64,000 nucleotides of DNA from an uncultured virus (IMG/VR IMGVR_UViG_3300037147_000124) (taxonomy: Duplodnaviria; Heunggongvirae; Uroviricota; Caudoviricetes), in the IMG/VR virus record IMGVR_UViG_3300037147_000124, positions 1-64,000 of that record; one strand, given 5' to 3'. The position numbers were made by a program, and so were the translations under genes. Of this stretch, positions 1,159 through 39,741 are shown piece by piece. Position 1 is the first letter of the stretch. Every line of letters begins with the position of its first letter. Below the pieces are notes generated by a model. The model was not told the DNA's origin, searched no databases, and was given only the letters and a program-made list of their open reading frames with translations.

Positions 1159-1286
1159 TAGTGGGGCCGGGCAGGATTCGAACCTGCGACCTACGGGTTT
1201 GCTCGGCTTTAGCCAGTTGCTGGTTGACCCAACGTGTGGATTGCCTTCAGTTGGCCCGCTGTTCTAACCGCTGAACTACCGGCCCC
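1159..1286 (-). tRNA. tRNA-like RNA with a 57-nt insert replacing the anticodon loop; identity undetermined
   Basis: Acceptor GGGGCCGG/CCGGCCCC; D-arm GTTC-AGCGGTTA-GAAC; anticodon stem GCGGG/CCCGT; variable AGGTC; T-arm GCAGG-TTCGAAT-CCTGC; 3' end ACTA. Confidence 0.85.
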
Positions 1287-6902: not shown

Positions 6903-7841
6903 TTAGACCTTTCCTGAAGCGAGCTTCTTCTGCCTACCAGCAGACAAACCCTTCTTGCCGGCCAGCTTGAGTGCTTCCATTGCTGCGTCGAACTGCGCCT
7001 TGACGTCACCGGAGATCCTGACTTCGTCCTTCTCGAACGTCTTCAGCATTTCCATGGCAGCTTCGCTGTCGCCGAACTGTACCTGCTCCGCCACACGGCG
7101 GTTCAGAGCCGAGAAGCCAGCCGAGCGCTCCACATATTCCTTGACCACCTTGATGACCGCGTCCGACAGGCCAGGAAGGCCGTCGTAGAGGAACTTGTCG
7201 ATCTTGGTGTCCAGGCTGCGACCTTCGTCTCCGATGTCGTCCAGCTTGCTCAGCAGGGCAAGCTTCTGCTTCTCGCGGAGTTTGACGTTCTCGCGGAACG
7301 TCGCCAGGGTCATCGTCTGATCCAGGTCGTCCATGTCCAGCGGGCCGGTCAGGCCTTCGGACTCCTCGAAGAGTTCCTTGCCGCGCTTGAGCAGCTTGGA
7401 ACGCTTCTCGATCATCAGAGCCACTTCCGGGCTGATGATGCGAACCGCCTCATTCAGACCAGGCAACTGGTTGATGATGTCGGACGCACGCAGGGCAGCG
7501 ATCGCCTCCAGCTCCGTGGTCGGCCGGCCGCCCACGAACTTGCGGTAGTTCTGATAGCTCGGGGTCCCGTACGCGCCTTGGGGCTCGAACAGATCCTCTG
7601 GTGTGGAGCACCACGAATCCTTGAGCGGCTTGATGTGCTTGTCGGAGATGAAATGCCTGTCCTTGGCCTTGTTCACGATCTGCCTGGCGGTCGCGAGGAG
7701 AATGAAACGCGCGACACGGATGCGGTCGTTGAAGGTCTTGACGAACGTGGCCTTCTTGTCCTCGCTCCAGGTCGACAGCTGGTCATTGCTCAGCTGCGCG
7801 GTGAGCGCGGTTATATCGTTGGCTTGAGTATCCTGTGACAT
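6903..7841 (-). CDS. hypothetical helical/coiled-coil protein
   Basis: AAGGA RBS before MSQDTQ; strong codon bias. Confidence 0.75.
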   Translation of the reverse strand: MSQDTQANDITALTAQLSNDQLSTWSEDKKATFVKTFNDRIRVARFILLATARQIVNKAKDRHFISDKHIKPLKDSWCSTPEDLFEPQGAYGTPSYQNYRKFVGGRPTTELEAIAALRASDIINQLPGLNEAVRIISPEVALMIEKRSKLLKRGKELFEESEGLTGPLDMDDLDQTMTLATFRENVKLREKQKLALLSKLDDIGDEGRSLDTKIDKFLYDGLPGLSDAVIKVVKEYVERSAGFSALNRRVAEQVQFGDSEAAMEMLKTFEKDEVRISGDVKAQFDAAMEALKLAGKKGLSAGRQKKLASGKV

Positions 7842-7854
7842 GTATTCCTTTCGG

Positions 7855-9063
7855 TTATGCTGCGATGAGGTGAGTGGGCTTGTCCTCGCCCTGGCCATCG
7901 ATGTAGAAGACGTCCCGGCCGTGAGGCCGAACGATCTTCCAGAGAGCCTCATGGGCCTCCCAGATCCGGTTGTCCATCATCATCATGGCGATCGGGCCCA
8001 GGACCATGTCCCGTTCGATCACCAGGCGATAGAACTCCCGGTCATCCTTGACCTCGGCGCGCAATGGTGTAATCCAGGCCAGAACATCCAGCGCCTTACA
8101 GATCTGGAAGTGAAAAGCCTGATAGAGTCTCCTCTGCCATTCCTCGATCCAGGTCTTGAAGTGAGGCGGCAACTGCGACTGCAGGTGCGTCGGCCTCAAC
8201 CATGGCTTGAGCGGATCGCCCATCTGTTCCCAGATCATCTGGGGCGTCACATTGGTGACCAGGCGATGCAGCCGGAGATACTCCTCGAGCTTGATCTTCA
8301 CCTTGAGCGGGGGTTGTCCGCCGCGGCGGACTGAGACCACATAACCCTCACGGGTCAGGTCCTTATCCTGCCTGCAGGCCATCAGAGTCTTACCCGAGAA
8401 GGCAGGCACTACGCGGCACCATGGTTTCCCCTTGGCGCCTGCGTTCAGCTCCTTCCAGAGGCCTTCCAGTTGCCAGTGGCGCAACTCGTCACCGGTGTCG
8501 TTCATGACGGTCGTCAAAAGCACCAGGGCCTCGTAGTCGTAAGGAATCACGATGCGGAGATGCTTGGCGACGATCTCAACGATCAAGGTCAATCCCTTGG
8601 GGATGCACTCGACCATGCCATACTTGACGAACTTCTGGAACTTGGCAGTCGCCCAGATCGCGCCGTCCGAGGTGAACGACCCGCGGGTGGCCACACCCCA
8701 GTGCTCCTTGTAGTTCCAGACGATGCCCATCTGGCCATCGATTTTGTCGGTGAACTCCAGCTCGTTGCCGTAGGCCCGGGCAATGCCCAGGACGAACTCC
8801 TCTGAGAATTCCAATAGTCCTTGGCCAACGATGTCGACCGTCTGGCCCAGGTTGAAGAACTTCGGTTGCGGACGCGCGATGACCTCATCGGTATCATCGA
8901 TGATCAGACCGCGGCAGAAGCAGATCTCCGTGCTCCAACGCTCATCGATCGTAGCCTTATGGGTATAGTTGAAGATCCGTAACGGCAGAGTCGGGTGGTG
9001 TTGAATACCGATGTAACCATTGGCGATCTCCTGCTTGAGTGCGTCCGTCCAAATCATCTTCAT
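7855..9063 (-). CDS. RNA ligase, T4 Rnl1-like
   Basis: IFNYT, CRGLI, PKFFN, adenylation motif DKIDG, ATRGSF, EGYV, VKIK. Confidence 0.9.
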   Translation of the reverse strand: MKMIWTDALKQEIANGYIGIQHHPTLPLRIFNYTHKATIDERWSTEICFCRGLIIDDTDEVIARPQPKFFNLGQTVDIVGQGLLEFSEEFVLGIARAYGNELEFTDKIDGQMGIVWNYKEHWGVATRGSFTSDGAIWATAKFQKFVKYGMVECIPKGLTLIVEIVAKHLRIVIPYDYEALVLLTTVMNDTGDELRHWQLEGLWKELNAGAKGKPWCRVVPAFSGKTLMACRQDKDLTREGYVVSVRRGGQPPLKVKIKLEEYLRLHRLVTNVTPQMIWEQMGDPLKPWLRPTHLQSQLPPHFKTWIEEWQRRLYQAFHFQICKALDVLAWITPLRAEVKDDREFYRLVIERDMVLGPIAMMMMDNRIWEAHEALWKIVRPHGRDVFYIDGQGEDKPTHLIAA

Positions 9064-9392
9064 ATTCGTGTCTGCCCCTTTGCGTGGCGAATGACCTTGT
9101 TCCCGTACGGGCTCATCTTCTGTTCCTGAGCTGTCAGGTCGTACTTGTGATCCTTCCAGGCCTCGCATGCATGAACAGTTTCAGCATGAACATGGCCATC
9201 CGGGATGTCGCCAAACCAACGCCTCACGTGGCACCCACAGGCCAGTCGGGCCTCAATGCACATCGTCACGACTCGGCGAGTGGCCTTGATCTTGAGCTTG
9301 GGACGACGCGGACACTTGTTCAAATGCTTGAACAGAGGTGTCCTGTCTAAGACCGCACCGCAGTGCGGGCAGTGCTCTCGGCAGCCCTTCAT
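9060..9392 (-). CDS. Cys/His-rich putative zinc-binding protein
   Basis: CPHC...H...C motif; tiled ORF. Confidence 0.55.
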   Translation of the reverse strand: MKGCREHCPHCGAVLDRTPLFKHLNKCPRRPKLKIKATRRVVTMCIEARLACGCHVRRWFGDIPDGHVHAETVHACEAWKDHKYDLTAQEQKMSPYGNKVIRHAKGQTRI

Positions 9393-9622
9393 CAGGCGGC
9401 CGCGGGTGTGGTGTTGATGGTGTCCAGCATGCCGCCGAACCGCTCCATCAGCGTCTGGGGACGCGTGCCGCGGGATGCAGCTGCTACCAGTCGGAGTTCG
9501 ATTGCACCCTGGTCAAAGGTCACGATCTCGTCAGCAGACGAGGGTTGGGGTGCCATGTTGTGTTCGAGATACTCTTCACGAGCCTCCGCAGAGGCGAATC
9601 CAGCGAAACTACGGTTGTCCAT
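9392..9622 (-). CDS. hypothetical protein
   Basis: AAGGAG RBS. Confidence 0.6.
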   Translation of the reverse strand: MDNRSFAGFASAEAREEYLEHNMAPQPSSADEIVTFDQGAIELRLVAAASRGTRPQTLMERFGGMLDTINTTPAAA

Positions 9623-9826
9623 GTTGCTCCTTCGGTCGTCGGTGCCAGAGCCTCAATATCCATGCAGGAATGAAGGCTCCTTTCTTGTGTGCAGATACGC
9701 GAAGCGGTATGTGCAGGTCATCGGCGATCGCTCGGATCGCCGCGTAAGCGGGATGCTCCCGGAATTCCTTGATCGCCGATTCTTCGCTATCGGCGATGCC
9801 CTCGATGAGGATCATGCGGATCTCCA

Positions 9827-11116
9827 TTAGGAGACCGCCATTGGCGAGTTCCGAAGCTGTGTCGTTACAAACGCCACGGCTTCCTCACGCGTTTTGATCT
9901 TCTCTTCGAGCTGTTCGTCCTCGAGATTGTGCAGAACGAAGCCGAACGCAGGACTGGGCTTATAACCCAGGGCAATCAAGTCATCGCCGTTGAGCAGTAC
10001 CTTGGGATAAGTCCCAGGCAAACCCGCCGCGCTCATGAACTGATCCACACGATGAAATGCCCGTTGGCCCCCGGTGTAAGCCGGCCGCGCGAAGTAATCG
10101 TGCAGCGCCACCTGACGAATCAGGTCATAGTCCGCATCGCGGCGATAGCGCCGCTGTGCTGCCAGGTTCCAGTCCGGGATGCAGCTCCAAACCTGTGCCT
10201 TGGTGATGATGTTAGTGATCTGGGCAGCATCCGCCGTCGAGAACTTCAGACCCAGCAGCGCGTTCTTCCGTGCCGTGGTGCCGAGATCCAGGAACAGCAG
10301 AGACAATGCGATCAGGACGTGATCCTTGACGGCCTGACCGTAGGCGCTGGACCAGGAGATTGCAGGCATCTGGTTGAGGCGACGCAGAACCCTTCCGAAG
10401 TCGGTATCTAGCTCCGGCAGCAGGTAGTCCAGCAGGTTCGAGAGCAGAAGCAGTTCCAGGGCGCGTACGGCCCGGGGCTGGCTCAGCATCGCGATCAGCT
10501 CCTCGCGCTTCCGTTCTCCGCTGATCTCAGCGAGTAAGGGAGCATTGACGCGCATCGCGCCCCAGGTGGGCTCGTCAATCTGGAAGTCCAGCCGGGCGGC
10601 AAATCGGATTGCCCGGAGTAAACGCAGGGCGTCTTCTTCAAAGCGCCGGTTGGGATCCCCGATGCAGCGGATCTTCTTGTGCGCGATGTCCATGACTCCG
10701 CCGGTGAGATCCACCAGCTCACCGGTCTCGATGTCCAGGGCCAGGGCATTGATGGTGAAGTCCCGCCGCTGAACGTCCTCGGCCAGGGTCTTGCTGTAGA
10801 CCACAGCGTCAGGGTGACGGTGGTCAGAATAGGCGTCCTCGGCGCGGAAGGTGGCGACCTCGAAACTCTCCTCATTGATCGTGACGAGAACGACGCCAAA
10901 CTTAGCGCCTACGGGCTTGGAGCAATCTGGGAAGATTGCCATGACCTCGTCAGGCACTGCGTTGGTGACGATGTCATAGTCTTTGGGGAGATTGGCCAGG
11001 ATACGATCTCGAACGCAACCGCCGATCAGGTAGGCTTCTTTGCCGGCCTTGCGTAGGTGGTAGATCAGCTTCTCGACCGCGACCATACGGACGGTCGGTT
11101 GCATTCTGAGGATCAT
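9827..11116 (-). CDS. cca: CCA-adding tRNA nucleotidyltransferase (class II)
   Basis: GGCVRD, DYD, EVATFR, RRDFTINAL, EDALRLLRAIRF; flexible loop present; no poly(A) polymerase GRRF signature. Confidence 0.92.
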   Translation of the reverse strand: MILRMQPTVRMVAVEKLIYHLRKAGKEAYLIGGCVRDRILANLPKDYDIVTNAVPDEVMAIFPDCSKPVGAKFGVVLVTINEESFEVATFRAEDAYSDHRHPDAVVYSKTLAEDVQRRDFTINALALDIETGELVDLTGGVMDIAHKKIRCIGDPNRRFEEDALRLLRAIRFAARLDFQIDEPTWGAMRVNAPLLAEISGERKREELIAMLSQPRAVRALELLLLSNLLDYLLPELDTDFGRVLRRLNQMPAISWSSAYGQAVKDHVLIALSLLFLDLGTTARKNALLGLKFSTADAAQITNIITKAQVWSCIPDWNLAAQRRYRRDADYDLIRQVALHDYFARPAYTGGQRAFHRVDQFMSAAGLPGTYPKVLLNGDDLIALGYKPSPAFGFVLHNLEDEQLEEKIKTREEAVAFVTTQLRNSPMAVS

Positions 11117-11411
11117 GATTGTTTCACTTTCGGACGAGACATCATCGTTCGCCGGCAGGGACCGATGAACCAGGACCGGTCGAGTTTGTAGATCAACATG
11201 CCGTTTTCACGACAGCATAACTTACGCTCCACAATGGCTCCGTACCCGAGGCTTCGCGCGAGCCGCTTGGCTCGCTGAATCGTTCGGACTGTACGGAGAG
11301 GCGCGTTAGCGCCAGGTGAGAAGACGTCATAACGAAGGGAGCGTTTTGATTCTCTGGACAATTCAACTTCCCTAACTGGCGCCGGGGATTAGCCGACGCC
11401 TTGGATTTGAC

Positions 11412-12626
11412 CTACTCGAGGTCGGTATCGGAGCAGCGGACGGGAATGACCCGTACGCCATGTTCACGCCACATCTGAACCACACAGAGCCTGTCGTCAA
11501 TCGCAAATGCGATCTCCGCTTTGCAGGCCAGCATCTGTTCGAGGATCGTGGCTTTCACATCGACATCGGTGATGTGGGCCGGTTCTTTGCGCATGAACAA
11601 GTGGTCGAACGGCACCATGTGTTTGTCCAGCGACTCCAGGGTCTCGCGACCACAGCAGTTCATGTCGCGGCCGCTGACCAGGATGATCATGAAGCCCAGG
11701 GCACTGAGAGAGTGCAGCCAGTTCAGGATGATCTCGACCGGTTCGTCGTTGATGCACTCCTGCAGGAACTTGTAGTGATCCTTCTTGGCTTTGCCTGTGC
11801 CCTGGCAGATCCCGCATGGCATAGCGCCCGGGTCGTCCAATGCCTTCCCGGTGCCATAACATGGAGTGCAGATCCCGCTCACCAGGTGCTTCCGGTGATC
11901 CAGGTTGAACAGCGTGCCGTCGAGGTCACAGACCACAGCCGGATGGCCGCTCAGATCCAGGCGCCCGCTCAGAAGGTACTGCCGCTCGATCACCGGGCGG
12001 CCGACCTGTCTGCCTTCGAAGCGCATGGCGTCGCGGGCAATGCAATCCGCGATCGGGGTGTCGATGAACTTCACCTCGGCCTTGCGGAAGCACAGCTCTT
12101 CGGCGTAATCGAGCCACATCTGCCGGTGACCCGGGGTCAGGTTGGTGTCGTCGATGATGACATCCCTACCCTGTTCCCGCGCCGCACGGACAATGGCCTT
12201 CTCAGCCTCGATGATGAACTTCTCCTTCGAGGCAGCCCAACGAGGGATGGTCATCCGACGGATGTCGTCCCGGTTGATCCGGACCGCATGCCCGTTGTCC
12301 TGGATGTGCTTGAACGCAACCGTGGACTTGCCGCTCCCGGAAGGGCCGGACAGGATGGTCATTCGGCCAATTGGAGTCGTGCCGACCTTCAGGAAGATCG
12401 CCTTCTCTGCCTCATGTGTCAGCTCACCGCCAACCAGTCTAAGACCAGTCGCACCATCGGGTAACACGTGACGGATGCCTTCCGGCGTCATCACGTATTC
12501 GTACGCCCCGTAGGGCTCGCCGATGGCTTTTACGTCGAGGAACGTGCCGCCAAAGTAGTCCGGGATCTCGATCCGGCCGGTCTTGAATGTTGCTGGTCTC
12601 ATTACTCGTACCTCGTTGCTGTTCAT
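11412..12626 (-). CDS. polynucleotide 5'-kinase / 3'-phosphatase (T4 PseT-like)
   Basis: P-loop GPSGSGKST, INRDDIR, DDTNL; HAD motifs DLDGT, SGR, IDDR. Confidence 0.92.
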   Translation of the reverse strand: MNSNEVRVMRPATFKTGRIEIPDYFGGTFLDVKAIGEPYGAYEYVMTPEGIRHVLPDGATGLRLVGGELTHEAEKAIFLKVGTTPIGRMTILSGPSGSGKSTVAFKHIQDNGHAVRINRDDIRRMTIPRWAASKEKFIIEAEKAIVRAAREQGRDVIIDDTNLTPGHRQMWLDYAEELCFRKAEVKFIDTPIADCIARDAMRFEGRQVGRPVIERQYLLSGRLDLSGHPAVVCDLDGTLFNLDHRKHLVSGICTPCYGTGKALDDPGAMPCGICQGTGKAKKDHYKFLQECINDEPVEIILNWLHSLSALGFMIILVSGRDMNCCGRETLESLDKHMVPFDHLFMRKEPAHITDVDVKATILEQMLACKAEIAFAIDDRLCVVQMWREHGVRVIPVRCSDTDLE

Positions 12627-14425: not shown

Positions 14426-14821
14426 CTACAGAACATCGGCGCGTGCCGGATTGTCCTCGTCGTCGTCATCGTCATCGTCTTCCGGCTCGGCTGCTTCATC
14501 CTCGATGATGGTGAACTCGCGGCAGCCAATCCCGGTGACCTTACGAAAGGCATCGTCGAGACTGTCCATCGTGGCCTGGGTGTTGCTGTCGTCTGCGATG
14601 ACGTTGCCGTTCAGCAGCATCTGGCAGTCGTTGAAAGCATGCTCGACCGCGTCGAGCAGGATGTCCAGTTTCTTCAACCGGGGCACACCAGCCAGCAGCG
14701 TCTCGGCATCAAAGCCGACGATCGTTGCACCTTGCGAGTCTTCAACCCACTGGATGATCTCCTCAGCCAGCTTGTCCGAGATGGTCCGGGGCTCCGGGGT
14801 AGTGATTTCCAACTTCGACAT
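14426..14821 (-). CDS. acidic hypothetical protein
   Basis: GAGGAG RBS; poly-Asp tail. Confidence 0.7.
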   Translation of the reverse strand: MSKLEITTPEPRTISDKLAEEIIQWVEDSQGATIVGFDAETLLAGVPRLKKLDILLDAVEHAFNDCQMLLNGNVIADDSNTQATMDSLDDAFRKVTGIGCREFTIIEDEAAEPEDDDDDDDEDNPARADVL

Positions 14822-18485: not shown

Positions 18486-18709
18486 TCGAACCAGCCAGGC
18501 TCGTAAGGTACTTCCCAGCCATCCTGCGCCAGTAGCTGCGGGCGCCAGGACTCTTCCACATCTTCGAACCAGGGATCGCCGGTTGGATCATCGCTGATCA
18601 CGTGACGCAGCATTGTTCCGTTGGCCTCGTTGTACATAATCAGGCCGCGAGCGTCGTGGGTAATGACCGTGCCGCCCTTAGCGGCAGCCACGGCCTGAGC
18701 AGCGTTCAT
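18434..18709 (-). CDS. hypothetical protein
   Basis: TGATG coupling to the ligase gene. Confidence 0.6.
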   Translation of the reverse strand: MNAAQAVAAAKGGTVITHDARGLIMYNEANGTMLRHVISDDPTGDPWFEDVEESWRPQLLAQDGWEVPYEPGWFEWAWLRVRMWISDWRDR

Positions 18710-20316
18710 CAGCGTCTCCAGCCCTGTGCGGCTATCAGGGCATACTTCGTTCGCATCATCTCTTCTTGATCGCCGCCAGCCAGGCTTTCGGCGTACATGT
18801 ACAGGCCCGCTTCGGTGTTGCCCTTGCCCTCATGGAATCCCATGAAGACGCCGGCGCGTGGTGCACCGCGCGCAGTCAGCTCCTGCACCTGGATCTTGAC
18901 CGTGGATCCCTGGACCAGCTCTCGATGGTTCCAGATCCACTCCCGTTGCTGATCCGGTATGGCGAATGAGCCAACCTCACCGATCGCACCGTTCGCGGGG
19001 TTCTGGACTACCAGCTTGCCGACAGAATCGGCATACTTCCCGGAGCCGGGCAGAACTTCCACCAGCACCAGGTCAGCAAAGTCCACCTGCTTGACCTTGA
19101 ACCAGGTCTCGCCGGTGGGATCGCCGGCATCCTTGATCACGACGCCTTCGCCGAATGGCAGAGGCAGACGCACGATTGAGTTGTAGAACGCGACTGGGTC
19201 ATCACCTGCATCCATCTTCTGGACCATGTCCCAGTTCCGGTTGTAAAACCGGATCTCACGAACTACTTTCTCAGCCAGGGCCCGGCGTTGGGCATAGGGT
19301 AAACCGCTTACGTCACGTCCTTTGTATTTGACCAGGTCCCAGCAGTGGGCCTGCACGGGACCGCGCTGAAGCTGCACATCTTGTGCGCGTCCGGGAAGCG
19401 CGTTGAGAATTCCCGCAACACGATGCACGCCGTCTGGGTGGACAAGTTCAACCTTGCCGACAGTGCCGTCAAGATCGGGGTATGGCATGAGTTTGCGTGA
19501 GGACCAGTAGCGTGAGGTGTTGTGGAGATCTTCGAGTGCGGGAATTCGATCATAGTAGGTCTGACCACCCTCCCGGTGGCTGTGAAATACTGCCTTGCCC
19601 TTGCCGATCTTGAAGTTGCCGAGCGATCCATCTTCCTTCTGCTCGACAATCCAGCGCTCGCCGTTCGCATTGTCCAGGCGGACCTGATCCAGGAACGCCG
19701 CGGGCTTGAGCGAGTACGATGGCTTCTCGATCACCGGGCCTTCGTCTTTCAGCATCAGGGATAGAAATCCCTTGGCAGTCTTGACGATGGCGTAGCGGCC
19801 TTTGAAATCCCCGTTGGGGATGTTCAGCTCGAACTGCTCTGTTCCAGGCGGCAGGCCGGCAACTGCGAGGTCATAATGCAAGCCAGCAACGTCCGCGTCG
19901 TGGACGTGATATTCAACCCTTCGGAGCGATGTTTGTGCTCCGACTTTGACAGGTATTCGGCCAGTAAAGAGAAGGCTCTTTCTTCCCTTACCGTAGCCGG
20001 ACTCGATGACTCCATTGAATCCCTCCAGGGTATGCGGGCCATTCTCGATGACCAGGTGGCGCTCGCCGGCCTTGGGCAGGCCCTTGGGCAGCGTGTACTT
20101 GGCGCCGGCCTCTGGGGGCCTAACACCGCCCAGAATACCGCCATCGACCGTACGGGCTGCCCAGAGGTTGCTGGTGGCCCATCGGCTGGCCTCCCGGCCC
20201 AGCGTGCGCGTAACGACGCGGCTGGTGCCCGGGAGCACGACAGCGCTCAGAAGATCAAGCGCATTCTCTTTGCCCCACAGAATCGCCGCGCGGGTGAGTG
20301 TTCGTACGAATCCCAT
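18709..20316 (-). CDS. ATP-dependent DNA ligase with N-terminal LigD phosphoesterase-like domain
   Basis: Ligase motifs EQKEDG, WDLV, GEGVVIK, WFKVK and an OB domain; PE-like HDA...LHYD and LPKG...H...FNGVIESGYGKG. Confidence 0.85.
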   Translation of the reverse strand: MGFVRTLTRAAILWGKENALDLLSAVVLPGTSRVVTRTLGREASRWATSNLWAARTVDGGILGGVRPPEAGAKYTLPKGLPKAGERHLVIENGPHTLEGFNGVIESGYGKGRKSLLFTGRIPVKVGAQTSLRRVEYHVHDADVAGLHYDLAVAGLPPGTEQFELNIPNGDFKGRYAIVKTAKGFLSLMLKDEGPVIEKPSYSLKPAAFLDQVRLDNANGERWIVEQKEDGSLGNFKIGKGKAVFHSHREGGQTYYDRIPALEDLHNTSRYWSSRKLMPYPDLDGTVGKVELVHPDGVHRVAGILNALPGRAQDVQLQRGPVQAHCWDLVKYKGRDVSGLPYAQRRALAEKVVREIRFYNRNWDMVQKMDAGDDPVAFYNSIVRLPLPFGEGVVIKDAGDPTGETWFKVKQVDFADLVLVEVLPGSGKYADSVGKLVVQNPANGAIGEVGSFAIPDQQREWIWNHRELVQGSTVKIQVQELTARGAPRAGVFMGFHEGKGNTEAGLYMYAESLAGGDQEEMMRTKYALIAAQGWRR

Positions 20317-32751: not shown

Positions 32752-33049
32752 TCGATACCTCTTCGTGGCTCTTCAGTTTCACTGCGTGAGGTTCGGTCCA
32801 TGCAATCATCCGCATGTCCAACTCAGAGAGGTCAAGGCAGCGCCCTTCGAAGGTCACATCGAAGATCACCAGGTCAGCAATGTCCTGCAGCTCTGGCTTC
32901 TTGATCCGGATGGTGACGTCGAGGTTGGCTGCGCACTCCACGATGGAGAGAGGCAGGGGAAAGTCCGGATTGCACAGCAGCTGGATAGTGATCCGGCCAG
33001 GTTGATCCGGATCACCACCGAGAAGAGCACTGGCATCCCAGGTCTTCAT
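32687..33049 (-). CDS. hypothetical protein
   Basis: TGATG coupling. Confidence 0.6.
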   Translation of the reverse strand: MKTWDASALLGGDPDQPGRITIQLLCNPDFPLPLSIVECAANLDVTIRIKKPELQDIADLVIFDVTFEGRCLDLSELDMRMIAWTEPHAVKLKSHEEVSNERNATSATPNAPSGADGSTD

Positions 33050-33528
33050 CAGGCTGCCTTATCCAGGGGCTCGAGGTACGACAGGCTGATGCGGAAAGCA
33101 TCGGCGATCTTGGTGAACGATCCCGGCTTGCTTTCCAGCACATCCGGGTCCGCCATTAGGTCGGTCCAGACGATCTCGAGAGCCTCCTTGTTGGAGTGAA
33201 TCCGCTTGGCCAGGGCCAGCATGGGGAATGGCGACAGCAGGTCGTTGACTTCGGTCTTGGCCTGCTCCATGGCGGTGTTGAAGCCGAGGTTCCGGGTGGA
33301 GACGAACAGTTCGTTCGCCCTGAACTGGATCAGGTACATCGAGACGATTGCCTTGGCCCGAGGGTCGATGATGATCTGCATGATGGCCGCCTTGATGGCG
33401 TCTTCGAAGTTGTCGGGATTGGCCTTGAGACGTTCAATGGTCTCGGTGATGACTTCCCCGATGTAACAGCTGCCGGTCACAACGCGGTCGACGGACTCGA
33501 AGATTCCGAGGGCTGAGGGTTTCGACAT
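33049..33528 (-). CDS. hypothetical protein
   Basis: GGAG RBS; strong codon bias. Confidence 0.7.
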   Translation of the reverse strand: MSKPSALGIFESVDRVVTGSCYIGEVITETIERLKANPDNFEDAIKAAIMQIIIDPRAKAIVSMYLIQFRANELFVSTRNLGFNTAMEQAKTEVNDLLSPFPMLALAKRIHSNKEALEIVWTDLMADPDVLESKPGSFTKIADAFRISLSYLEPLDKAA

Positions 33529-33744
33529 GATGAAGCTCCATGACCTGTTCGAGGTCAGTGCTGCAGGTTAGTAAACCGAGGTGGCGGAGACGGCCGCGTT
33601 GGTCGCGGTGTTGTTGGACTTCAGGAAGGCGGCGAGGATAAGCGCAGTGATGACCCCGGCGATTATCCGAACAAGGATCGAGGCGATGAACGTAGCCATG
33701 GACTGCTCCAGCTTGGATTTGACAACCGATGAATCTGAAACGGG

Positions 33745-33762
33745 ATAGGGTGAAACACTTAG
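33745..33762 (-). promoter_or_regulatory. class I motif copy (CTAAGTGTTTCACCCTAT)
   Basis: recurring motif. Confidence 0.65.
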
Positions 33763-33834
33763 AGACCCGACGCCGGGACAGGAAGGAGAATGGACCCATC
33801 CCGGCGCTCCAGCACACTGAGTGCGCTGGAAAAC

Positions 33835-34086
33835 TTAGCGCCGCTTGGCCTGCCGCTTCTGCGGCTTGCCGAACAGCACCTCGGAGACCGCCGCGTCGAA
33901 AGCGCGCGTGAAGGGCATGGTCTTGAGGGTGTGCTGCAGCTTGGGAGCCAAGCCTGGCAGCGCAGTGTGCGCGGAACGAACCACGGTGTTGCGACCAACA
34001 TCGGTGGTAGCCGCCGCAAGGTTGTGGACAAAGCCGTCACGAATCAGCTGACGGCCATCGGGGTTGAGGGTGGCAACATTGAGCAT
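33835..34086 (-). CDS. hypothetical protein
   Basis: GGAGG RBS. Confidence 0.65.
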   Translation of the reverse strand: MLNVATLNPDGRQLIRDGFVHNLAAATTDVGRNTVVRSAHTALPGLAPKLQHTLKTMPFTRAFDAAVSEVLFGKPQKRQAKRR

Positions 34087-34099
34087 GGAACTACCTCCG

Positions 34100-34415
34100 T
34101 GGGATAAACAACATCAGGTGAGTGGAGCAGGGCTCAACACTCAGAACTATGCGGCGTCAACACTAGGCTCGTAAGACAGTCGGCCAGCCCCGAAGGGCCC
34201 CGTAATGTCCGGAGAGGGTTTGCGTATGTAGCCGCTTCACATGCTGAATCTGACATCTTGCCGTGCCGTACCAGATCGGTAGTCCCGCCACAAGAACCGG
34301 CTCAAGTCCGGGTTATGACGGCCGCCTGGGCAGCGCTGTCGCTAGTCAAGATTCGAGGGACATATCTCGCCCTCATTGCAGGTGGAAAGGGTCGGGGTGA
34401 TTGGCTCACCCCTTG
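34100..34415 (-). ncRNA. candidate structured RNA A (contains duplicated motif, copy 1)
   Basis: No convincing ORF; hairpins GGGGTGA/TCACCCC, GAGGG/CCCTC and a C(UUCG)G loop; ~105-nt motif shared with 35273-35372. Confidence 0.55.
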
Positions 34416-34805
34416 AAGCCTTACAGCTTGGCCGGCGGCGTGGAACGCACCGGATTGACCACAACAGGCTTGGGGCCTGTGTAGTCCGTCCCGTACTCAC
34501 GACGGAACGAGGTTGGCATACAGCCAGCCAGCATGGTGCGCTGACTGGTCTCAAGCCGCCGCGCAAAACCTGCGGTGGCGCAACGGGGCGTAACTGCATG
34601 ACGAACAGCTGCCATGGCAATCTCCTTGAAGCGTTGAATTGTGGGTGGGCGTTACAGGATTGAAACTACCGGCTCTGCCAGGGCAGGACCGGGATGTCGG
34701 GGAAGTCGTTGATCAGCTCTTCGATTGAGCCAACGTAGCGATGAAGCCGGCCGCCACAGAGGACGGCCAGCTCACCAGCAGGCGACATGAATGCCGCGGT
34801 GGCCA

Positions 34806-35228
34806 CTAGAACCGAACCCAGTGAGGACGGATCGTGCTGTCAGCACTGAGGAATTCCTCATGGAATGAACCACCGAAGCGGCAGGTGATGGCATAGTCCA
34901 CGAACTCCTTGGCCTCTCGAAGCGAGGCTGTCGGAACGATCCGGCGAACGTGCTTGATAGCCACGATCTTGTTATGCCGCATACTGTCGAAGGTCTGGAT
35001 GAAGATGGCCAGGCTCTTCTGCGCATCCGAGGTCAGCGCTTCCAGCGGATTGCCGGGAAAGACGGCAGGCGGAGGAGTGGGAAAGCCGAGCATGAGGTTC
35101 TGAGCGAACGCCATGGTGGAACGAGCTTGGGGCTCGTCGAGACCCTCGACTGTGAGGTCGAAGTGCGAGGGCGCACCGGCCGGAGCGAAAGGCGCTTCCG
35201 ACCGAGAGAGGTGAATTGAACCGAGCAT
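34806..35228 (-). CDS. protein with ribosomal protein L7/L12 C-terminal-like domain
   Basis: KIVAIKHVRRIVPTASLREAKEFVD. Confidence 0.65.
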   Translation of the reverse strand: MLGSIHLSRSEAPFAPAGAPSHFDLTVEGLDEPQARSTMAFAQNLMLGFPTPPPAVFPGNPLEALTSDAQKSLAIFIQTFDSMRHNKIVAIKHVRRIVPTASLREAKEFVDYAITCRFGGSFHEEFLSADSTIRPHWVRF

Positions 35229-35272
35229 GGATGCTCTCCTTGTTGCAGGGTGTTGAAACAAACGGTGGTGCA

Positions 35273-35372
35273 GTGAGCGGAGCCAGGCTCAACGCTCGAA
35301 ACTTGCGGCCCTGTACCCGACAGGGCCTGCAGTGGTGCGACCGCGGGCGTCAGAGATACACCCAGGGTTTGC
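35273..35372 (-). ncRNA. candidate structured leader RNA B (duplicated motif, copy 2)
   Basis: Stem GAGCG/CGCTC covaries with GAGTG/CACTC in copy 1. Confidence 0.55.
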
Positions 35373-35420
35373 TACGTGGAGAATCAGTAGAAAGGTTGGA
35401 GGATGGGGGTAGAGAAACCC

Positions 35421-35438
35421 ATCGGGTGAAACTCTTAG
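35421..35438 (-). promoter_or_regulatory. class I motif copy (CTAAGAGTTTCACCCGAT)
   Basis: recurring motif. Confidence 0.65.
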
Positions 35439-35722
35439 GCGTGGGCACACTGTACGGCTTGAACGCCGTACTGCGTAATCACGAAGGCAGTCCAGGGCTT
35501 GACACGATCAAGAAGAGCCTGCAGCTGATCCCGGACAGCGAGATAGAAGGGGCCCATGCACAGCCTGAGTCCTTCAACAGCGGTGGCCTGAGCGTTGAGA
35601 TAATCTCCAAGCGCTTCATACTTCAGAGCTTCCTCGAAGTACAGCTCACCACGGGTCTTGGCCATCGACTTGATGGCCCTGCTAACGCAGAGCATGTGCT
35701 CTTCGGTTGGGGTGCGGTACAT
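35435..35722 (-). CDS. hypothetical protein
   Basis: AAGGAGG RBS before MYRTP. Confidence 0.65.
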   Translation of the reverse strand: MYRTPTEEHMLCVSRAIKSMAKTRGELYFEEALKYEALGDYLNAQATAVEGLRLCMGPFYLAVRDQLQALLDRVKPWTAFVITQYGVQAVQCAHA

Positions 35723-35771
35723 AGTCCCTCCTTTCAAGGGTGTAAACGCAAAAGTTCGGCGGCGTCAGAGA

Positions 35772-35954
35772 TCAAACGGAAGGAGCGAGGATCTCGTCTA
35801 CAAGAGCACGAAGCTCAGCTAAACGATCCTGGTTATTGTTCAACCAGGCAATGAAGACCTCTTCCTTCCACTGAGGGTCAGTCAGAGAACTGACTGGACC
35901 CTGAGTCGCTGATTCCGGTATACCCAACTGCTCGTTGGTGGGTTCGATCTGCAT
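35772..35954 (-). CDS. hypothetical protein
   Basis: GGAGG RBS before MQIEP. Confidence 0.6.
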   Translation of the reverse strand: MQIEPTNEQLGIPESATQGPVSSLTDPQWKEEVFIAWLNNNQDRLAELRALVDEILAPSV

Positions 35955-36229
35955 ACTGCCTCCGTTCAAAGCTTGAGTGGGGCTGTGAGTACAGCCCATA
36001 AGGGATAGCCCTTAGGGTGATTGCTATATATAGATAGGCACTGAATCCACAACGGACTATCTGCAGGTTGTCTTACACCATGCATGTTATAGCTGTAATT
36101 GGGCTTACACTGCCTTTATGGGCACAGACCAGGTCTCTCCGTCCTATCAGACATCAGGAAGCTCACGCGTGCGCGCGCTCCAAAGCTCTGCTAAGCAGGC
36201 TAACCTGCTGATCTGGCTATGGTTATGCT

Positions 36230-36530
36230 GTGATCCTGTGGAGTGGGCTCTGAATGCCTGTTGCGCTAGCACTACTGCATAGCTGAGCATGCTCCAAAGA
36301 GCCCGCCTCTCGGCATCCGCCTGTGCGGATGCGAGATGCTGGCGGAGGAGCGACCCCCGGAGGGGTGGCGACTACATGTCAGTGCGACCTGTGAGTTCAC
36401 GTTGGACGCCCAGGTTTCCCCGGTCAACGCCCAGCGCTACTGTCACAGACACTGCGCTTGGAGCGGTATGCGCTCCCTCAGCCACAGGATTGTCCTGCAG
36501 CTGAGGCAGAGCGTACTGCTCTGCCCTTGA
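36230..36530 (-). ncRNA. candidate multi-helix RNA C directly downstream of the polymerase gene
   Basis: 9-bp closing helix ATCCTGTGG/CCACAGGAT enclosing five or more stems, with GAAA and UCCG tetraloops. Confidence 0.65.
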
Positions 36531-36544
36531 ATCAGGTGGTGCGA

Positions 36545-39500
36545 TTAGAACACTACGTCGGCGAGTTCTCCGGCTGAGACTGCTTCGGCCAGGTTGGCCT
36601 TGAAGTCGGAGCGGAGTTCAGGGATGGCCTCGGCGATGACGATGACGCCGCCGGCAGACATCGAGTAATAGCCATCCGGCAATGTCGGATGAGCGGTTAC
36701 TGACAGCTGCGAGTCGTTGTCCACATCATGCACGTGGCCATTGGTTGCGCGTACCAGGCGATGGACGGAGGTGCCCTTGAGCATCTCCTTCACCTTGTAC
36801 TTGAGGTGGATGAACGCGACCTGACCGGTCAGGCCCAGTTCCTCCATGCAGTCCATCAGCTCGTTGAGCATCCAGTTGGGGACGCCGTCACCTACGCTGA
36901 TGGTCTTGCCGTCCTCGGACACCAGGGCCTCGGACTCCATCGAGTACACCTTGTTGAGCCACTCGACTGCGATCGAGCGACGCACTTCAGGCGACCAGGC
37001 GCCGCCGCTGATGGAGAGCTTGACGCCCTCCCCTTCGGAGGTGAACTGGTTGAGGTAGAAGTCCCTGAGACCGAGGTGATGCAGTGTGGTGCTGCTCACG
37101 ATACGGCCTTCGGCATCCTTCACATCGATCGGCTCATCCCAGCCATTGGCGATGTTGTCATACGCATCCTCAGACAGCTCGCCCGTGAGGGACTTGGCTG
37201 CTTCGAACTGCGCACGCCACCAGACGCGCAACGCTTTGACGACGTCGGTGATGACATCGCTGCCGGGATAGGCCATGAGCAGCTGCAGAGGCAGCGGCTT
37301 CTTGAAGCTGTGCTCGAGCTGACGGGATTCCTCCATGATTCCCTCATAGTGGTCCTTCAGCTCTTCCAGAGCAGCGCAGACCTCGGTACGGACCAGCAGG
37401 TAGTTGCCTGCTTCGATCCGGTCCTTGGGTGCACGGCCCTGGCGGACGTAGGATGCCGGGAAGATGAGAGTCTTCTCCGACAGCTTGGCCTCCTGGCACA
37501 GTTCGGTCACCATCTTCTTGTTGCCCTTACCCTGCTGCAGGTAGTCGATGACCATGTCCGAGTTGCTCGCTGCGCGCTTGCACAGGAAGGGCTGGCGCAC
37601 CTTCATGAACGTGATGCACAGCTGGACGAAGTCCTCCACCTCCGGCTTGTAGTCCACGGGGATGAATTCCCAGAACCACTCCGGGCTGTTGATCTTGACG
37701 TCTTCCAACGACATGGCATGGAAGCCCTTCGGCACGATGTATGTGCCGTTGATGAGGGAGTCCAGGATCACGACCACGTTGTCGCCCGACAGCATGTTGT
37801 CGAGCGTGAGGCGGTTGATGAAGGTACCCAAGCTCTCACGATACTGCGTGAAGTGCTTGAGGTCCCGACGGAAGCAGTTCCAGTTCCACTCGTCCCCGAT
37901 ACCCTCATGGGTGAGGCGGTTACGTGCGGCCCAGTGGCTGTCCTTCTTCTCTTCAACCGAGATCTTCGGCTGCTTCGGATACTCCTGGATCTTGGCTGCA
38001 ACTCGGAGGACATACACCGAGTTCCAGAAGACCCAGATCGAGTCATCCATATCACCACCGTTGAGATAGCTCAGCTGTTCAGCGATCCGTTCGAGCAGGA
38101 AGCAACGGCCTTGGCCCTTGTACTTCTTCAGCTCTGCCGGGATGTAGTTGAGGAATACTAATGCTTCTGCACTGCAGGCATTGGGATTACGACCTGCTGT
38201 CACCAACACACCGTCTGGTGCATCCGGCATGCAGTTGACGAAGACAGGAATGCCCAAGCGATCCGAGCACATCTGAGCACGTGCCATGATGTGATCCGGA
38301 ACCTTGGACAGGGTGAGATCCACGATGCGCTCATCGTCGACGAATACGGTCGGCGGTGGTGCGACGTAGACACGACGCGCCCACTCATGAGGCATGGGCA
38401 CACGGCCCCGACGTAAGTCGAGGATGTTGTCGAACAGGTGACGAGTGACGCGACGGAAGCCCACAGGCATAGCCTTGGTTCCGATCCCGTCCTCCGCCAT
38501 GCGCACCAGCGCCCAGCGGTTCTCGCTCTCATCGTTGCAGGAGTTGACGAATGCACTGATCTCATCGAGCAGCTTGCCTTCGTCGCTGCCGAACAGGATA
38601 GCCGCCGCACGGTCCATATACTTGATACCAGTGGTGGCTGCCAAGCCCTTGGCACCCAGGCCCATGTTGCCCATGGTCTGGTTGTCGAGGGTGAGGTCAT
38701 GCTCCTCAGCATCCGAGAGTGCACCCAGGAAGACGCGGTCATCCACGAAGCGAACCTCCTTCTTCGAACCGAAGAGATAGAGGTCGTAGCTGCGCATGTG
38801 CGGCATCTTCCAGTAAATGCCCTTGCCTTCGCCGAACTCGCCGACGAGGGTAAGCGCCTTGTTGAAGTACCCGGGGATGTTGGAGATACCCATCCCATCG
38901 ATGGTGGCGGTTTCAGCTGCGTTGAAACGGGTCATGTCCGCATCGAGAATGCGGATAACCCGGCCGTTGTCCAGCTCGATCTCGTAGGCGGTGCCTTCGG
39001 GAACGATCGTACGGTCAATGATGTGACCCCGCATCGAGGACTGATGCGGTGCCAGGAAGCGGCGCAACCGCTTGGCTGCCTTCGCGTCACTGGATACCCA
39101 GATACCCAGATCCTTGAAGCTGCGTGCCTTGCAGTTGTCGGATACGAAGAGAGCGGTGCCCTCATCGATCACGTTGCCGTAGATGGGGACGTAGCGAATG
39201 CCCGTCTGCTTGTCGGTCCAGCCGGAGCGCACCAGCGACCAGGCCTTGTTGGCCATGTGCTTGGTGGCGTTCTTGCCGGATGCTTCGAAGCTGACGAAGC
39301 CGTAGGTGACGCCTTCTGCCAGGAGGTCATCGAGAGCCTGACGGGTCTCGCTGTCATCGATGGCAGTCTTCGAGTCGAAGGATGCGCCTTCCTTGCGGAT
39401 ACGGCGCGTGATCTCCTTCAGGTTGACCTCACCCTCAGCACCGTGGGATACGGCGCTCAGCACCAGCTGGAATGCCAGCTTGCTGGTGGGTTCGGTTGGG

Positions 39501-39643
39501 GTAACGGCTTCTGCGACTGCGACTGCGGCCGCTCCAAAGCTCTCTGAAGTGATCGGTGACGCTGCAACCACTTCGTTGACAACGATACGGGCGATGAAGC
39601 GACCAGTCTTGGGGTCACGAGCTGCTACGGTTCTCTGAGACAT
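36545..39643 (-). CDS. single-chain two-barrel RNA polymerase, YonO / cellular RdRP-like
   Basis: Colinear RdRP-type motifs: IDGMGIS, GEGKG, LDNQ, LRRGRVPMP, GRNP, LNGGDMDDSIWVFW, LGTFIN, IDYLQQG; AAGGAG RBS. Confidence 0.8.
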   Translation of the reverse strand: MSQRTVAARDPKTGRFIARIVVNEVVAASPITSESFGAAAVAVAEAVTPTEPTSKLAFQLVLSAVSHGAEGEVNLKEITRRIRKEGASFDSKTAIDDSETRQALDDLLAEGVTYGFVSFEASGKNATKHMANKAWSLVRSGWTDKQTGIRYVPIYGNVIDEGTALFVSDNCKARSFKDLGIWVSSDAKAAKRLRRFLAPHQSSMRGHIIDRTIVPEGTAYEIELDNGRVIRILDADMTRFNAAETATIDGMGISNIPGYFNKALTLVGEFGEGKGIYWKMPHMRSYDLYLFGSKKEVRFVDDRVFLGALSDAEEHDLTLDNQTMGNMGLGAKGLAATTGIKYMDRAAAILFGSDEGKLLDEISAFVNSCNDESENRWALVRMAEDGIGTKAMPVGFRRVTRHLFDNILDLRRGRVPMPHEWARRVYVAPPPTVFVDDERIVDLTLSKVPDHIMARAQMCSDRLGIPVFVNCMPDAPDGVLVTAGRNPNACSAEALVFLNYIPAELKKYKGQGRCFLLERIAEQLSYLNGGDMDDSIWVFWNSVYVLRVAAKIQEYPKQPKISVEEKKDSHWAARNRLTHEGIGDEWNWNCFRRDLKHFTQYRESLGTFINRLTLDNMLSGDNVVVILDSLINGTYIVPKGFHAMSLEDVKINSPEWFWEFIPVDYKPEVEDFVQLCITFMKVRQPFLCKRAASNSDMVIDYLQQGKGNKKMVTELCQEAKLSEKTLIFPASYVRQGRAPKDRIEAGNYLLVRTEVCAALEELKDHYEGIMEESRQLEHSFKKPLPLQLLMAYPGSDVITDVVKALRVWWRAQFEAAKSLTGELSEDAYDNIANGWDEPIDVKDAEGRIVSSTTLHHLGLRDFYLNQFTSEGEGVKLSISGGAWSPEVRRSIAVEWLNKVYSMESEALVSEDGKTISVGDGVPNWMLNELMDCMEELGLTGQVAFIHLKYKVKEMLKGTSVHRLVRATNGHVHDVDNDSQLSVTAHPTLPDGYYSMSAGGVIVIAEAIPELRSDFKANLAEAVSAGELADVVF

Positions 39644-39741
39644 GTGGTTCTCCTTTGTCCAGATCTCCACGATCTGAACGGCTATGCCAGTCGGGTAACT
39701 GGCGAGTTGTGGTTGTGAGTTGGGGGAGCAGGTCTATGCGC

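Follow-up and report, generated by a model that had tools for sequence, protein, structure and literature searches.

A candidate structured leader RNA in two copies beside a predicted single-chain RNA polymerase gene of an uncultured jumbo phage

The nut site of phage lambda combines boxA with a boxB hairpin (5-bp stem, pentaloop) that is bound by the arginine-rich N protein, T7 phi10 transcripts carry a stabilising stem-loop at the 5′ end, and the promoters of the N4 virion RNA polymerase (RNAP) contain a hairpin, with a 5-7 bp stem and a 3-nucleotide (nt) loop, that is recognised in DNA. In HK022, according to PMC9378689, two similar put RNAs of ~70 nt (putL and putR), each with two bulged stem-loops, lie downstream of the early promoters and, with no protein factor involved, make RNAP resistant to terminators. 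PeSLs of T4-type phages, as excerpts of PMC2839356 and PMC4122927 describe them, are cassettes of a promoter plus a stem-loop that flank ORFans and recombine. For the RNAP YonO of SPbeta, PMC5467207 reports that 37 late genes are transcribed as one operon and that the single start site precedes an unannotated non-coding RNA, and the same text leaves the promoter open; a search of later literature on the YonO promoter gave nothing useful. P23-45 has two two-barrel enzymes with their own short DNA motifs and 23 start sites (bioRxiv 10.1101/2022.12.01.518664). Here, we analyse a leader element that occurs twice in the first 64,000 nt of the uncultured virus record IMGVR_UViG_3300037147_000124 (this whole stretch is hereafter called the window), downstream of a gene for a predicted single-chain two-barrel RNAP. 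We tentatively read the two segments as paralogous copies of a cis-acting structured leader RNA that acts at the level of transcription, in the manner of put or nut, and hold this reading with somewhat less than even confidence.

The duplicated leader element and its bulged hairpin

The minus strand of the window carries both copies of a ~105-nt segment, copy A running from 34223 to 34118 and copy B from 35372 to 35273. The 9-mer GCAAACCCT opens both copies (34215-34223 in A, 35364-35372 in B), their middles are unalignable, and a 38-nt 3′ block of the form GCCGCA(T)AGTTyy-GAGyG-TT-GAGC-nnn-GCTC-CrCTC-AC closes both (34118-34155 in A, 35273-35309 in B). A first-pass annotation had proposed a duplicated leader motif from these positions, the common start, the unrelated middles and the shared end, all of which we recover, read on the minus strand. 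The features of the two copies are as follows.

34118 to 34223, minus strand: copy A, leader element as first delimited, upstream of P0001
35273 to 35372, minus strand: copy B, leader element as first delimited, between the P0004 stop (35435) and the P0002 start (35228)
35364 to 35372, minus strand: 5′ 9-mer GCAAACCCT of copy B, from the sequence
34118 to 34155, minus strand: conserved 3′ block of copy A, GCCGCATAGTTCT + hairpin + AC, from alignments of copies and relatives
35273 to 35309, minus strand: conserved 3′ block of copy B, GCCGCAAGTTTC + hairpin + AC, from the same alignments
34120 to 34142, minus strand: bulged hairpin of copy A, GAGUG-UU-GAGC-CCU-GCUC-CACUC, -10.8 kcal/mol, with the derived U-A pair
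35275 to 35297, minus strand: bulged hairpin of copy B, GAGCG-UU-GAGC-CUG-GCUC-CGCUC, -11.5 kcal/mol, present in the minimum free energy (MFE) and centroid folds
35307 to 35327, minus strand: middle hairpin of copy B by fold prediction, GGCCCUGU-CGGGU-ACAGGGCC, without sequence kinship to the middle of copy A

Matches expected to the full 38-nt pattern number 0.00; the hairpin pattern by itself has two matches in the 64-kb window against 0.05 expected, and 1 of 100 shuffles reaches two. The homology between copies A and B extends past the 38-nt block through GTTT.T..CA, GGAG and an identical TCCATGCTC that spans the start codon. Both copies are located in intergenic gaps, the coding-potential profiles backing P0004, P0002, P0001 and P0006 on the minus strand, and a Shine-Dalgarno sequence and an ATG follow each copy, as expected from the earlier claim that each ends just upstream of a ribosome-binding site. 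Specifically, the hairpin-to-ATG distance is 33 nt in copy A and 46 nt in copy B, and 21 nt separate the hairpin end from the Shine-Dalgarno sequence in copy A.

In both copies, the shared block folds as a 9-bp hairpin with a 2-nt bulge. One of the nine pairs is altered on both sides, U-A in copy A versus C-G in copy B; the compensatory T-A versus C-G change noted in the first-pass annotation is therefore real, and it is nonsignificant on the two paralogues alone (131 of 500 shuffles reach it). Because both pair variants occur in one genome, the constraint falls on pairing and not on base identity. Copy B is identical in all four strains seen. Among the same strains, copy A shows seven changes, two of them in the hairpin loop, one in the 9-mer and none in a stem; its 9-mer reads GCAATCCCT in a 98%-identical strain.

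At gathering threshold, the sole match of Rfam 15 on the window is a tRNA at 1163-1285, with none at the copies, and across 33800-35600 at E<=10 the only matches are four at chance level, with 10.8-16.9 bits against cutoffs of 35-80. The relatives L077, L075 and L083, described below, give no Rfam match at E<=1. As a phage motif, the element is new and well delimited, though its general kind is known; Rfam 15 holds nothing that matches it, and its earlier description as undescribed stands.

Several other candidate features of the copies were rejected. CAAACCCT does not serve as a general upstream signal, since three of its five occurrences lie elsewhere and bear no relation to the copies, and TTTGGAGCG is matched 26 times against 18 expected, a count that 6 of 100 shuffles reach. 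A conserved leader peptide is incompatible with a 1-nt indel that shifts the reading frame between the copies, the anti-Shine-Dalgarno pairing of copy A is not kept in copy B, and a GCAAAC/GUUUGU closing helix forms in copy B and meets a C-A mismatch in copy A.

The same hairpin in diverged phages and the adjacent predicted RNA polymerase gene

The large gene upstream of the copies (36545-39670) has 93 relatives at E<=0.001, with 35-41% identity, in the protein library, and an alignment of ten polymerase relatives leads to a second phage clade (G003-G006) with conserved gene order. In the syntenic interval of this clade, the covariance model R1 finds GAGCG-UC-GAGC-UU-GCUC-CGCUC (E 0.06), a hairpin ~105 nt upstream of the P0006 homologue; copy B and the element of the relative L068 are 82% identical over 34 nt. 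In the second clade, the homologues of P0003 and P0001 are adjacent, copy A is absent, and P0002 and P0004 are not detected. A relaxed pattern leads to L077 of a third lineage (G007), which carries the full flank AGTGTTGATGCCGCCCAAGTTTC followed by GAGCG-UC-GAGC-AUU-GCUC-CGCUC, with the GTG start of an unrelated open reading frame (ORF) of 66 amino acids (aa) 24 nt further on. G007 is syntenic as well, its polymerase homologue being 23% identical, on the same strand and ending ~2.6 kb upstream of the element. The polymerases of the three hairpin-bearing lineages are thus only 41% and 23% identical, and in all three the element lies 1-2.6 kb downstream of the polymerase gene on the same strand. 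Pattern and covariance models find a single copy in each relative, at the syntenic position in both diverged lineages.

While the enzyme has diverged to this extent, the hairpin and flank have kept nearly every base. The 18 stem bases of copy B recur unchanged in L077 and G003/G004/G005, and copy A differs only at two paired positions; the U-A pair of copy A is, on these alignments, the derived state, because C-G is found in copy B as well as in three lineages. The first base of the bulge is always U and the second is U or C, and the hairpin loops vary in both sequence and length (CCU, CUU, CCC, CUG, AUU, UU). After the hairpin, the sequence reads ACCUGAUG, ACUGCACC, AAGUUCAA or AAUCCACA, with no U-tract in any phage copy. 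The element is always on the sense strand of the flanking genes and the gene behind it differs (P0001, P0002, the P0006 homologue, the unrelated 66-aa ORF); only the 38-nt block is common to all copies. That three lineages keep the hairpin, its stems unchanged, its bulge made of pyrimidines and its loops free to vary, supports the structured cis element or protein-binding site that had been suggested from the window.

Further searches brought no new homologues. Three pattern scans of viral collections return only strains 98-100% identical to the window, plus eight loci lacking the inner stem and the flanks; the genome-collection scan gives no match with a first pattern and 40 matches with a second, in GC-rich bacteria and with unrelated flanks. 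P0002, P0001 and P0006 as queries give no relatives outside the species. G003 and G004 are 97-98% identical overall, and a ~50-nt patch directly 5′ of the element is wholly replaced between them. In the alignment of L083 and L075, this hairpin-forming patch occupies columns 247-297, and the complete difference looks like a local replacement rather than point mutation. The patch swap parallels the lack of kinship between the middles of the two window copies.

The homology between copy A and L077 extends over ~260 nt of non-coding DNA, from which RNAalifold derives a consensus fold with 37 pairs and 98% of cells paired. In this fold, GCGGC..CAUACGC pairs with GUGUUGA.GCCGC through 11 pairs that are invariant in copy A, its two strain variants and L077, and the same long-range helix is present in the MFE fold of L077. 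Inside this helix lies a middle domain with a hairpin that reads GGCCC/GGGCU in the window and AGCCA/UGGCU in L077, with a C-G pair changed to A-U on both sides and a G.U pair changed to A-U; strain G002 also has A-U. The 9-mer is interrupted in L077. The predicted parts are listed here.

34222 to 34235, minus strand: 5′ strand of the long-range helix, GCGGCUACAUACGC, predicted, overlapping the first two bases of the 9-mer
34151 to 34163, minus strand: 3′ strand of the long-range helix, GUGUUGACGCCGC, predicted, overlapping the start of the conserved block
34186 to 34199, minus strand: middle hairpin of copy A, GGCCC-UUCG-GGGCU, with the L077 counterpart AGCCA-GCGC-UGGCU
34288 to 34314, minus strand: upstream conserved non-coding block AACCCGGACTTGAGCCGGTTCTTGTGG, common to L077, a hairpin candidate whose loops differ

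Double-sided changes fall in 5 of the 37 pairs, counted on the same four sequences from which the fold was derived (effectively two lineages), against 1.2+-1.0 in shuffles, none of 500 of which reaches this number, and 0-1 in slid controls. Additionally, three of the 37 pairs are G.U when read on the sense strand and would become C.A on the opposite one, and none of the three unpaired cells is A.C; the transcribed strand is favoured for this reason. The larger fold shared by copy A and L077, with its compensated pairs, is a further point in favour of a structured cis element.

The gene that precedes the element in all three lineages has this position in the window.

36545 to 39670, minus strand: predicted 1041-aa single-chain two-barrel RNAP (QDE-1/YonO-like), 1.2 kb upstream of copy B

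The AlphaFold model of the 1041-aa protein has a predicted local distance difference test score (pLDDT) of 89.2 and a predicted template-modelling score (pTM) of 0.84. With this model, Foldseek matches QDE-1 (7y7q_B, E 4.8e-13, prob 1.00, template-modelling (TM) score 0.37-0.46) among 26 chains at E<=0.001, which include RDR2 and the phage RNAPs P74 gp62, P32 gp64, P23-45 gp96 and that of crAss-like phi14:2; 8f5m, 8f72, 8h2m and 6vr4 are the phage RNAP structures among the matches. The motif N-G/A-D-[MFLY]-D-D is invariant in 43 aligned sequences (D531, D533, D534), as are K191, R195 and K274. The two-barrel signature is an aspartate triad DxDxD together with basic residues from the second barrel (PMC7824862); the spacing in this family, taken from the alignment of the 43 sequences only, is D.DD, not DxDxD. 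Sequence comparison finds little: the protein has no Pfam or PHROG match, a PDB sequence profile search gives no match at E<=1, tblastn gives no match in 50,697 phage records, and Pfam RdRP (PF05183) matches one of ten polymerase-family members (E 1.6e-4), the window protein not being matched. With high confidence, we predict from the model that the protein is a single-chain two-barrel RNAP of the QDE-1/YonO type, and it may represent a novel clade of polymerases in uncultured jumbo phages from peat and soil.

The window belongs to a 74-kb fragment of an uncultured jumbo phage, of which 98-100%-identical contigs exist, one of them 214 kb long and 99% complete (G001). By pattern, two covariance models (R1, R2) and a flank weight-matrix scan, the 214-kb genome contains only two copies of the element, at 121.3 and 122.4 kb; in the weight-matrix scan of flank plus 5′ arm, the next best score is 14.5 versus 26-31 for the copies. 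This score belongs to GCCGCAAGTTTG at 209153 on the plus strand of G001, the sole other partial flank match, which is without a hairpin and lies near the end of the plus arm. In G001, gene direction is almost uniform on either side of ~128 kb, minus down to 15 kb and plus up to 210 kb, and the polymerase gene and both elements lie within the first ~9 kb of the leftward arm, which exceeds 100 kb.

Neighbouring genes, RNA-library contigs and unrelated hairpins

The genes directly downstream of the two copies are the following.

33835 to 34086, minus strand: P0001, 83 aa, with a basic C-terminal tail (GKPQKRQAKRR) and its ATG at 34086, downstream of copy A
34806 to 35228, minus strand: P0002, 140-aa orphan with weak likeness to the L7/L12 C-terminal domain and its ATG at 35228, downstream of copy B

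That copy B precedes an L7/L12-like gene, as the first-pass annotation put it, holds for the position of P0002 and is doubtful for the likeness: the match to Pfam Ribosomal_L12 is weak (E 3.8e-4; 21.2 bits, below the cutoff of 25.9). P0002 resembles viral clusters in which ~30% of members carry an L7/L12 domain, with scores of 0.75-0.78, below the bar. The P0001 and P0002 proteins are unrelated (E 27), although the DNA homology crosses the start codon. P0002 and P0006 match only their own clusters, P0001 has a homologue in L068 at 14485-14784, and P0003 has an Arg-rich N-terminus; Pfam and PHROGs find no RNA-binding domain in the neighbouring proteins. A small hydrophobic protein of 43-44 aa (..RIIAGVITALILAA..) is common to the lineages (window 33568-33699, minus strand; L068 13709-13842). 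Because the position of its gene relative to P0003 and P0001 differs between lineages, the order of the small genes has been rearranged. Between the polymerase gene and P0004, ~800 nt on the minus strand (35740-36545) have no coding signal. Within this stretch (e.g. 36189-36128), AGAGCTTTGGAGCGC matches L068 13265-13451 at 15/15 positions, and a 50-nt block is 74% identical and ends in GGACGGAGAGACCTrGT; the stretch could be another non-coding RNA or a regulatory region.

Elsewhere, the window encodes an endolysin, a DNA ligase, a polynucleotide kinase-phosphatase, an RNA ligase and a CCA-adding enzyme, and one conserved protein is 53% identical to one of Ralstonia phage phiRSL1. The T4-type RNA ligase, CCA-adding enzyme and polynucleotide kinase-phosphatase genes form an RNA-repair-type cluster at 6903-12626 (minus strand), with the DNA ligase at 18709-20316. 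The Rfam tRNA match at 1163-1285 (minus strand) scores 55.8 bits over 123 nt, and ARAGORN finds no tRNA in the window; the locus may be an intron-containing or unusual tRNA.

Contigs from RNA libraries bridge copy B with the P0002 start and the copy A block with P0001. They do not cover 34170-34296; one ends at 34160, and adapter-tagged ends lie at 34382 and 35009. These ends were not used as transcript ends, the depth being ~12x and breaks being possible at strain variants (there is an indel near 34169). Just past the P0003 stop, a hairpin GGGGUGA-GCCAA-UCACCCC lies at 34394-34412 (minus strand), 12 nt upstream of the adapter-tagged end at 34382, and it may mark a transcript 3′ end. A scan for sigma-70 promoters in 33000-36600 gives a single promoter-like site, which lies on the other strand at a distance from the copies, and a terminator scan gives no terminator-like site on the minus strand at either copy.

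A metagenome scan with the hairpin returned 25 loci, two of which belong to the same species (97-99% identity). The other 23, which comprise 20 distinct sequences, were rejected as homologues and taken as unrelated terminator-like hairpins: the free position is paired in 14 of the 20, the flanks are shared by none, and several are AT-rich bacterial hairpins with a T-run. Among them, the bacterial intergenic loci L033, L047, L051 and L044 (GC 27-39%) have the 23-nt bulged hairpin extended by UUGCC/GGCAA (AAA/UUU in L044), with the free pair occurring as G-C and U-A; in L044, L047 and L051 a T-run after the hairpin looks like an intrinsic terminator, and L033 shares UGUUGUUUA at the same offset as copy A. 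The Streptomyces loci L103-L105, L110, L112, L116 and L122 carry a conserved intergenic GCTARCCTWACC..GGTGTTGGT... followed by GAGCGTSGAGC(N3)GCTCCGCTC, from which L120 differs; this is probably an unrelated structured element. In the low-GC viral contigs L022/L027 and L023/L031, CAGTTTAGAGrGTTCTG..AAAAACyCTCAC is common to two related phages; its 5-bp stem closes a large loop and has one pair swapped between A-T and G-C, and it appears unrelated to the leader element.

Candidate roles and comparison with described systems

We favour a leader RNA because pairing is constrained while a single genome holds two pair variants, because the element never departs from the sense strand, and because the helices upstream look RNA-like. 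The conserved core of this RNA would be the 9-bp hairpin with a pyrimidine bulge on the 5′ side, preceded by a short single-stranded flank, CCGC..(A)GUUU, and would be read as structure, with pairing required, stem sequence kept and loops free. The adjacent two-barrel polymerase gene points to a transcription-level role, not necessarily to regulation of the two downstream genes. We propose that the element, which stands in sense orientation where the >100-kb leftward arm begins and downstream of the phage polymerase gene, may act as nascent hairpin plus flank that engages the transcribing polymerase or a conserved partner, and that this engagement would mark or modify transcription of the long downstream array through a processivity or antitermination-type effect, like HK022 put or lambda nut. 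The analysis shows the sequence, the position and conservation of the hairpin and the polymerase fold; transcription of the element within the leader, its action as RNA and this mechanism as a whole are what we infer.

A number of results weigh against a leader RNA of this kind. The other genome arm has no copy, and the scan finds no canonical terminators downstream on which an antiterminator could act. The hairpin covariation is a single event, nonsignificant in the four-row alignment of paralogues plus strains, and whole-segment folding energies are no better than those of shuffles (z 0.58, -1.05, 0.23, -0.37, -1.22). The MFE fold in G003 and G004 pairs the 3′ arm of the hairpin with an upstream GCGGAG instead; the upstream fold, besides its count being made on the sequences that defined it, is not shared in sequence by copy B or G003/G004. 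RNA libraries may contain DNA, and assembled contigs cannot place transcript ends. Near-identical stems in such diverged phages also fit sequence-specific DNA recognition as well as they fit RNA.

In the main rival, the 38-nt block is the promoter or start signal of the adjacent two-barrel RNAP, either with the non-palindromic flank as promoter core and the hairpin as the first transcribed bases, a 5′-terminal stabilising stem-loop, or with the hairpin itself recognised in DNA. Synteny with the polymerase gene in three lineages and the confident polymerase fold speak for it, as do the limitation of common sequence to the 38-nt block, the short and variable hairpin-to-start distances (24, 33, 46 and ~105 nt) expected downstream of a promoter, the portability of an element that stands before unrelated genes, and its place where a >100-kb arm begins. 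Against it, the specificity for promoters usually drifts when polymerases are only 23-41% identical. Moreover, the RNA-library contigs of copy B continue upstream of the block, the upstream helices with sense-strand G.U and compensated pairs suggest an earlier start in copy A and L077, and a plus arm without any other site in 214 kb would need a different polymerase. The few sites per genome, a point in its favour, recall the single YonO start site for 37 late genes (PMC5467207) and the small promoter sets of P23-45, and overall we consider a promoter unlikely, though well worth keeping in mind. An operator of the phage coat-protein, RegA or gp32 type, at which an RNA-binding protein (possibly one of the nearby small basic proteins, P0001 or P0003) would control translation or mRNA stability of the next gene, is improbable: RNA hairpins bound by proteins typically combine a bulge and unchanging stems with a loop that may vary, the element lies in the sense strand of the 5′ untranslated region, and the second lineage has homologues of P0001 and P0003 along with it, but the hairpin never overlaps the Shine-Dalgarno sequence or start codon, ending 24 to ~105 nt before the start, the regulated gene would differ in every lineage, and the neighbours have no detected RNA-binding domain.

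The remaining explanations fare worse still. Recombination substrates at a PeSL-like cassette boundary, with the P0002-P0003 block inserted or duplicated between the copies, would explain why the copies flank orphan genes, why the second lineage has adjacent P0003 and P0001 homologues without copy A, P0002 and P0004, why the ~50-nt patch 5′ of the hairpin is swapped between strains 97-98% identical elsewhere, and why the A/B homology crosses the start codon. We nevertheless give this little credence, since there are two copies only and no dispersed family, no sigma-70-like promoter is detected on the element's strand, and a hairpin kept across 23-41% protein identity requires a function beyond recombination homology. 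That the hairpin is a terminator or insulator ending early transcription by the host polymerase after the phage polymerase gene is very unlikely: the same 23-nt hairpin does occur with an extended stem and T-run in the AT-rich bacterial contigs L033, L044, L047 and L051, and a polymerase lacking a flap domain might ignore it (discussion of PMC5467207), but no phage copy is followed by a U-tract, the scan finds no terminator on this strand, and RNA-library contigs run through the hairpin into the next gene. Least credible of all is a ligand-sensing riboswitch or the self-cleaving ribozyme that had been among the first suggestions. Some such RNAs have a similar layout, in which variable hairpins are inserted between a 5′ strand and a 3′ domain that are both conserved; against them, Rfam gives no ribozyme or other match to the element, no internal-loop or junction nucleotides are conserved across lineages, nor any unpaired core beyond the short 5′ flank, folding energies are ordinary, the 9-mer is variable among strains of the species and broken in L077, and no expression platform overlaps a terminator or ribosome-binding site.

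The interest of the element lies mainly in its tight association with what may be a new clade of YonO-like polymerases. Promoters and regulatory signals of YonO-type single-chain two-barrel RNAPs are essentially undefined, and the element here is compact (~40-140 nt) and nearly invariant. Hairpin and flank might be a dedicated cis-signal of an unrecognised clade of such enzymes in uncultured peat and soil jumbo phages, a doubtful but serious possibility; the signal could work either as a promoter whose start is structured or as RNA loading onto the polymerase. In that case, YonO-type enzymes would have their first defined recognition element, and the ability of one or two sites to drive a >100-kb arm would be explained. 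If the element is put/nut-like, RNA-mediated modification of polymerase would extend to jumbo phages, possibly to a non-canonical polymerase. Should both readings fail, a phage RNA or DNA motif would remain that is new, well delimited and described by a clear covariance model.

Among described systems, lambda nut resembles the element in having a short single-stranded motif and then a small hairpin, upstream of a gene for a small basic protein. It differs in the hairpin, which here has a bulged 9-bp stem and a 2-3-nt loop; by the commonly quoted consensus, a boxA-like CGCUCUUU is present only in the flank of G004/G005, the other copies having GCCGCA(U)AGUU, and Pfam and PHROGs scans, with no further search made, identified no N homologue. 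The N4 virion RNAP promoters and T7 phi10 are generally described as few sites with a 3-nt-loop hairpin and a phage polymerase, or as a promoter-proximal 5′ hairpin, which recalls the present locus, but the polymerases there are T7-like single-subunit enzymes and not two-barrel ones. PeSLs are similar in that composite repeats with stem-loops border orphan genes in a variable region and show signs of recombination at the repeat edge; the copies do flank orphan genes (P0002, P0006), and the G003/G004 patch swap at the 5′ edge of the element fits a recombination junction. A sigma-70 consensus promoter, poly-G/poly-C terminator stems and many copies belong to PeSLs, and none is present here. SPbeta PYONO likewise belongs to a phage with a single-chain two-barrel polymerase, has one start site per genome for a long operon and is followed by a non-coding RNA, a likeness by description and not by sequence, the polymerase here being without a tblastn match in the phage records searched. 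From HK022 put, the element differs in standing in tandem on one arm rather than at divergent operons, with one copy in the relatives, in having no known sequence relation to put, with a middle hairpin that is not conserved between copies, and in its partner, which could be the phage two-barrel polymerase rather than the zinc-binding domain of host beta'. What it would share with put is the build of a cis-acting phage leader RNA, here with a predicted middle hairpin plus a bulged hairpin, in two similar copies in G001, upstream of long transcription units.

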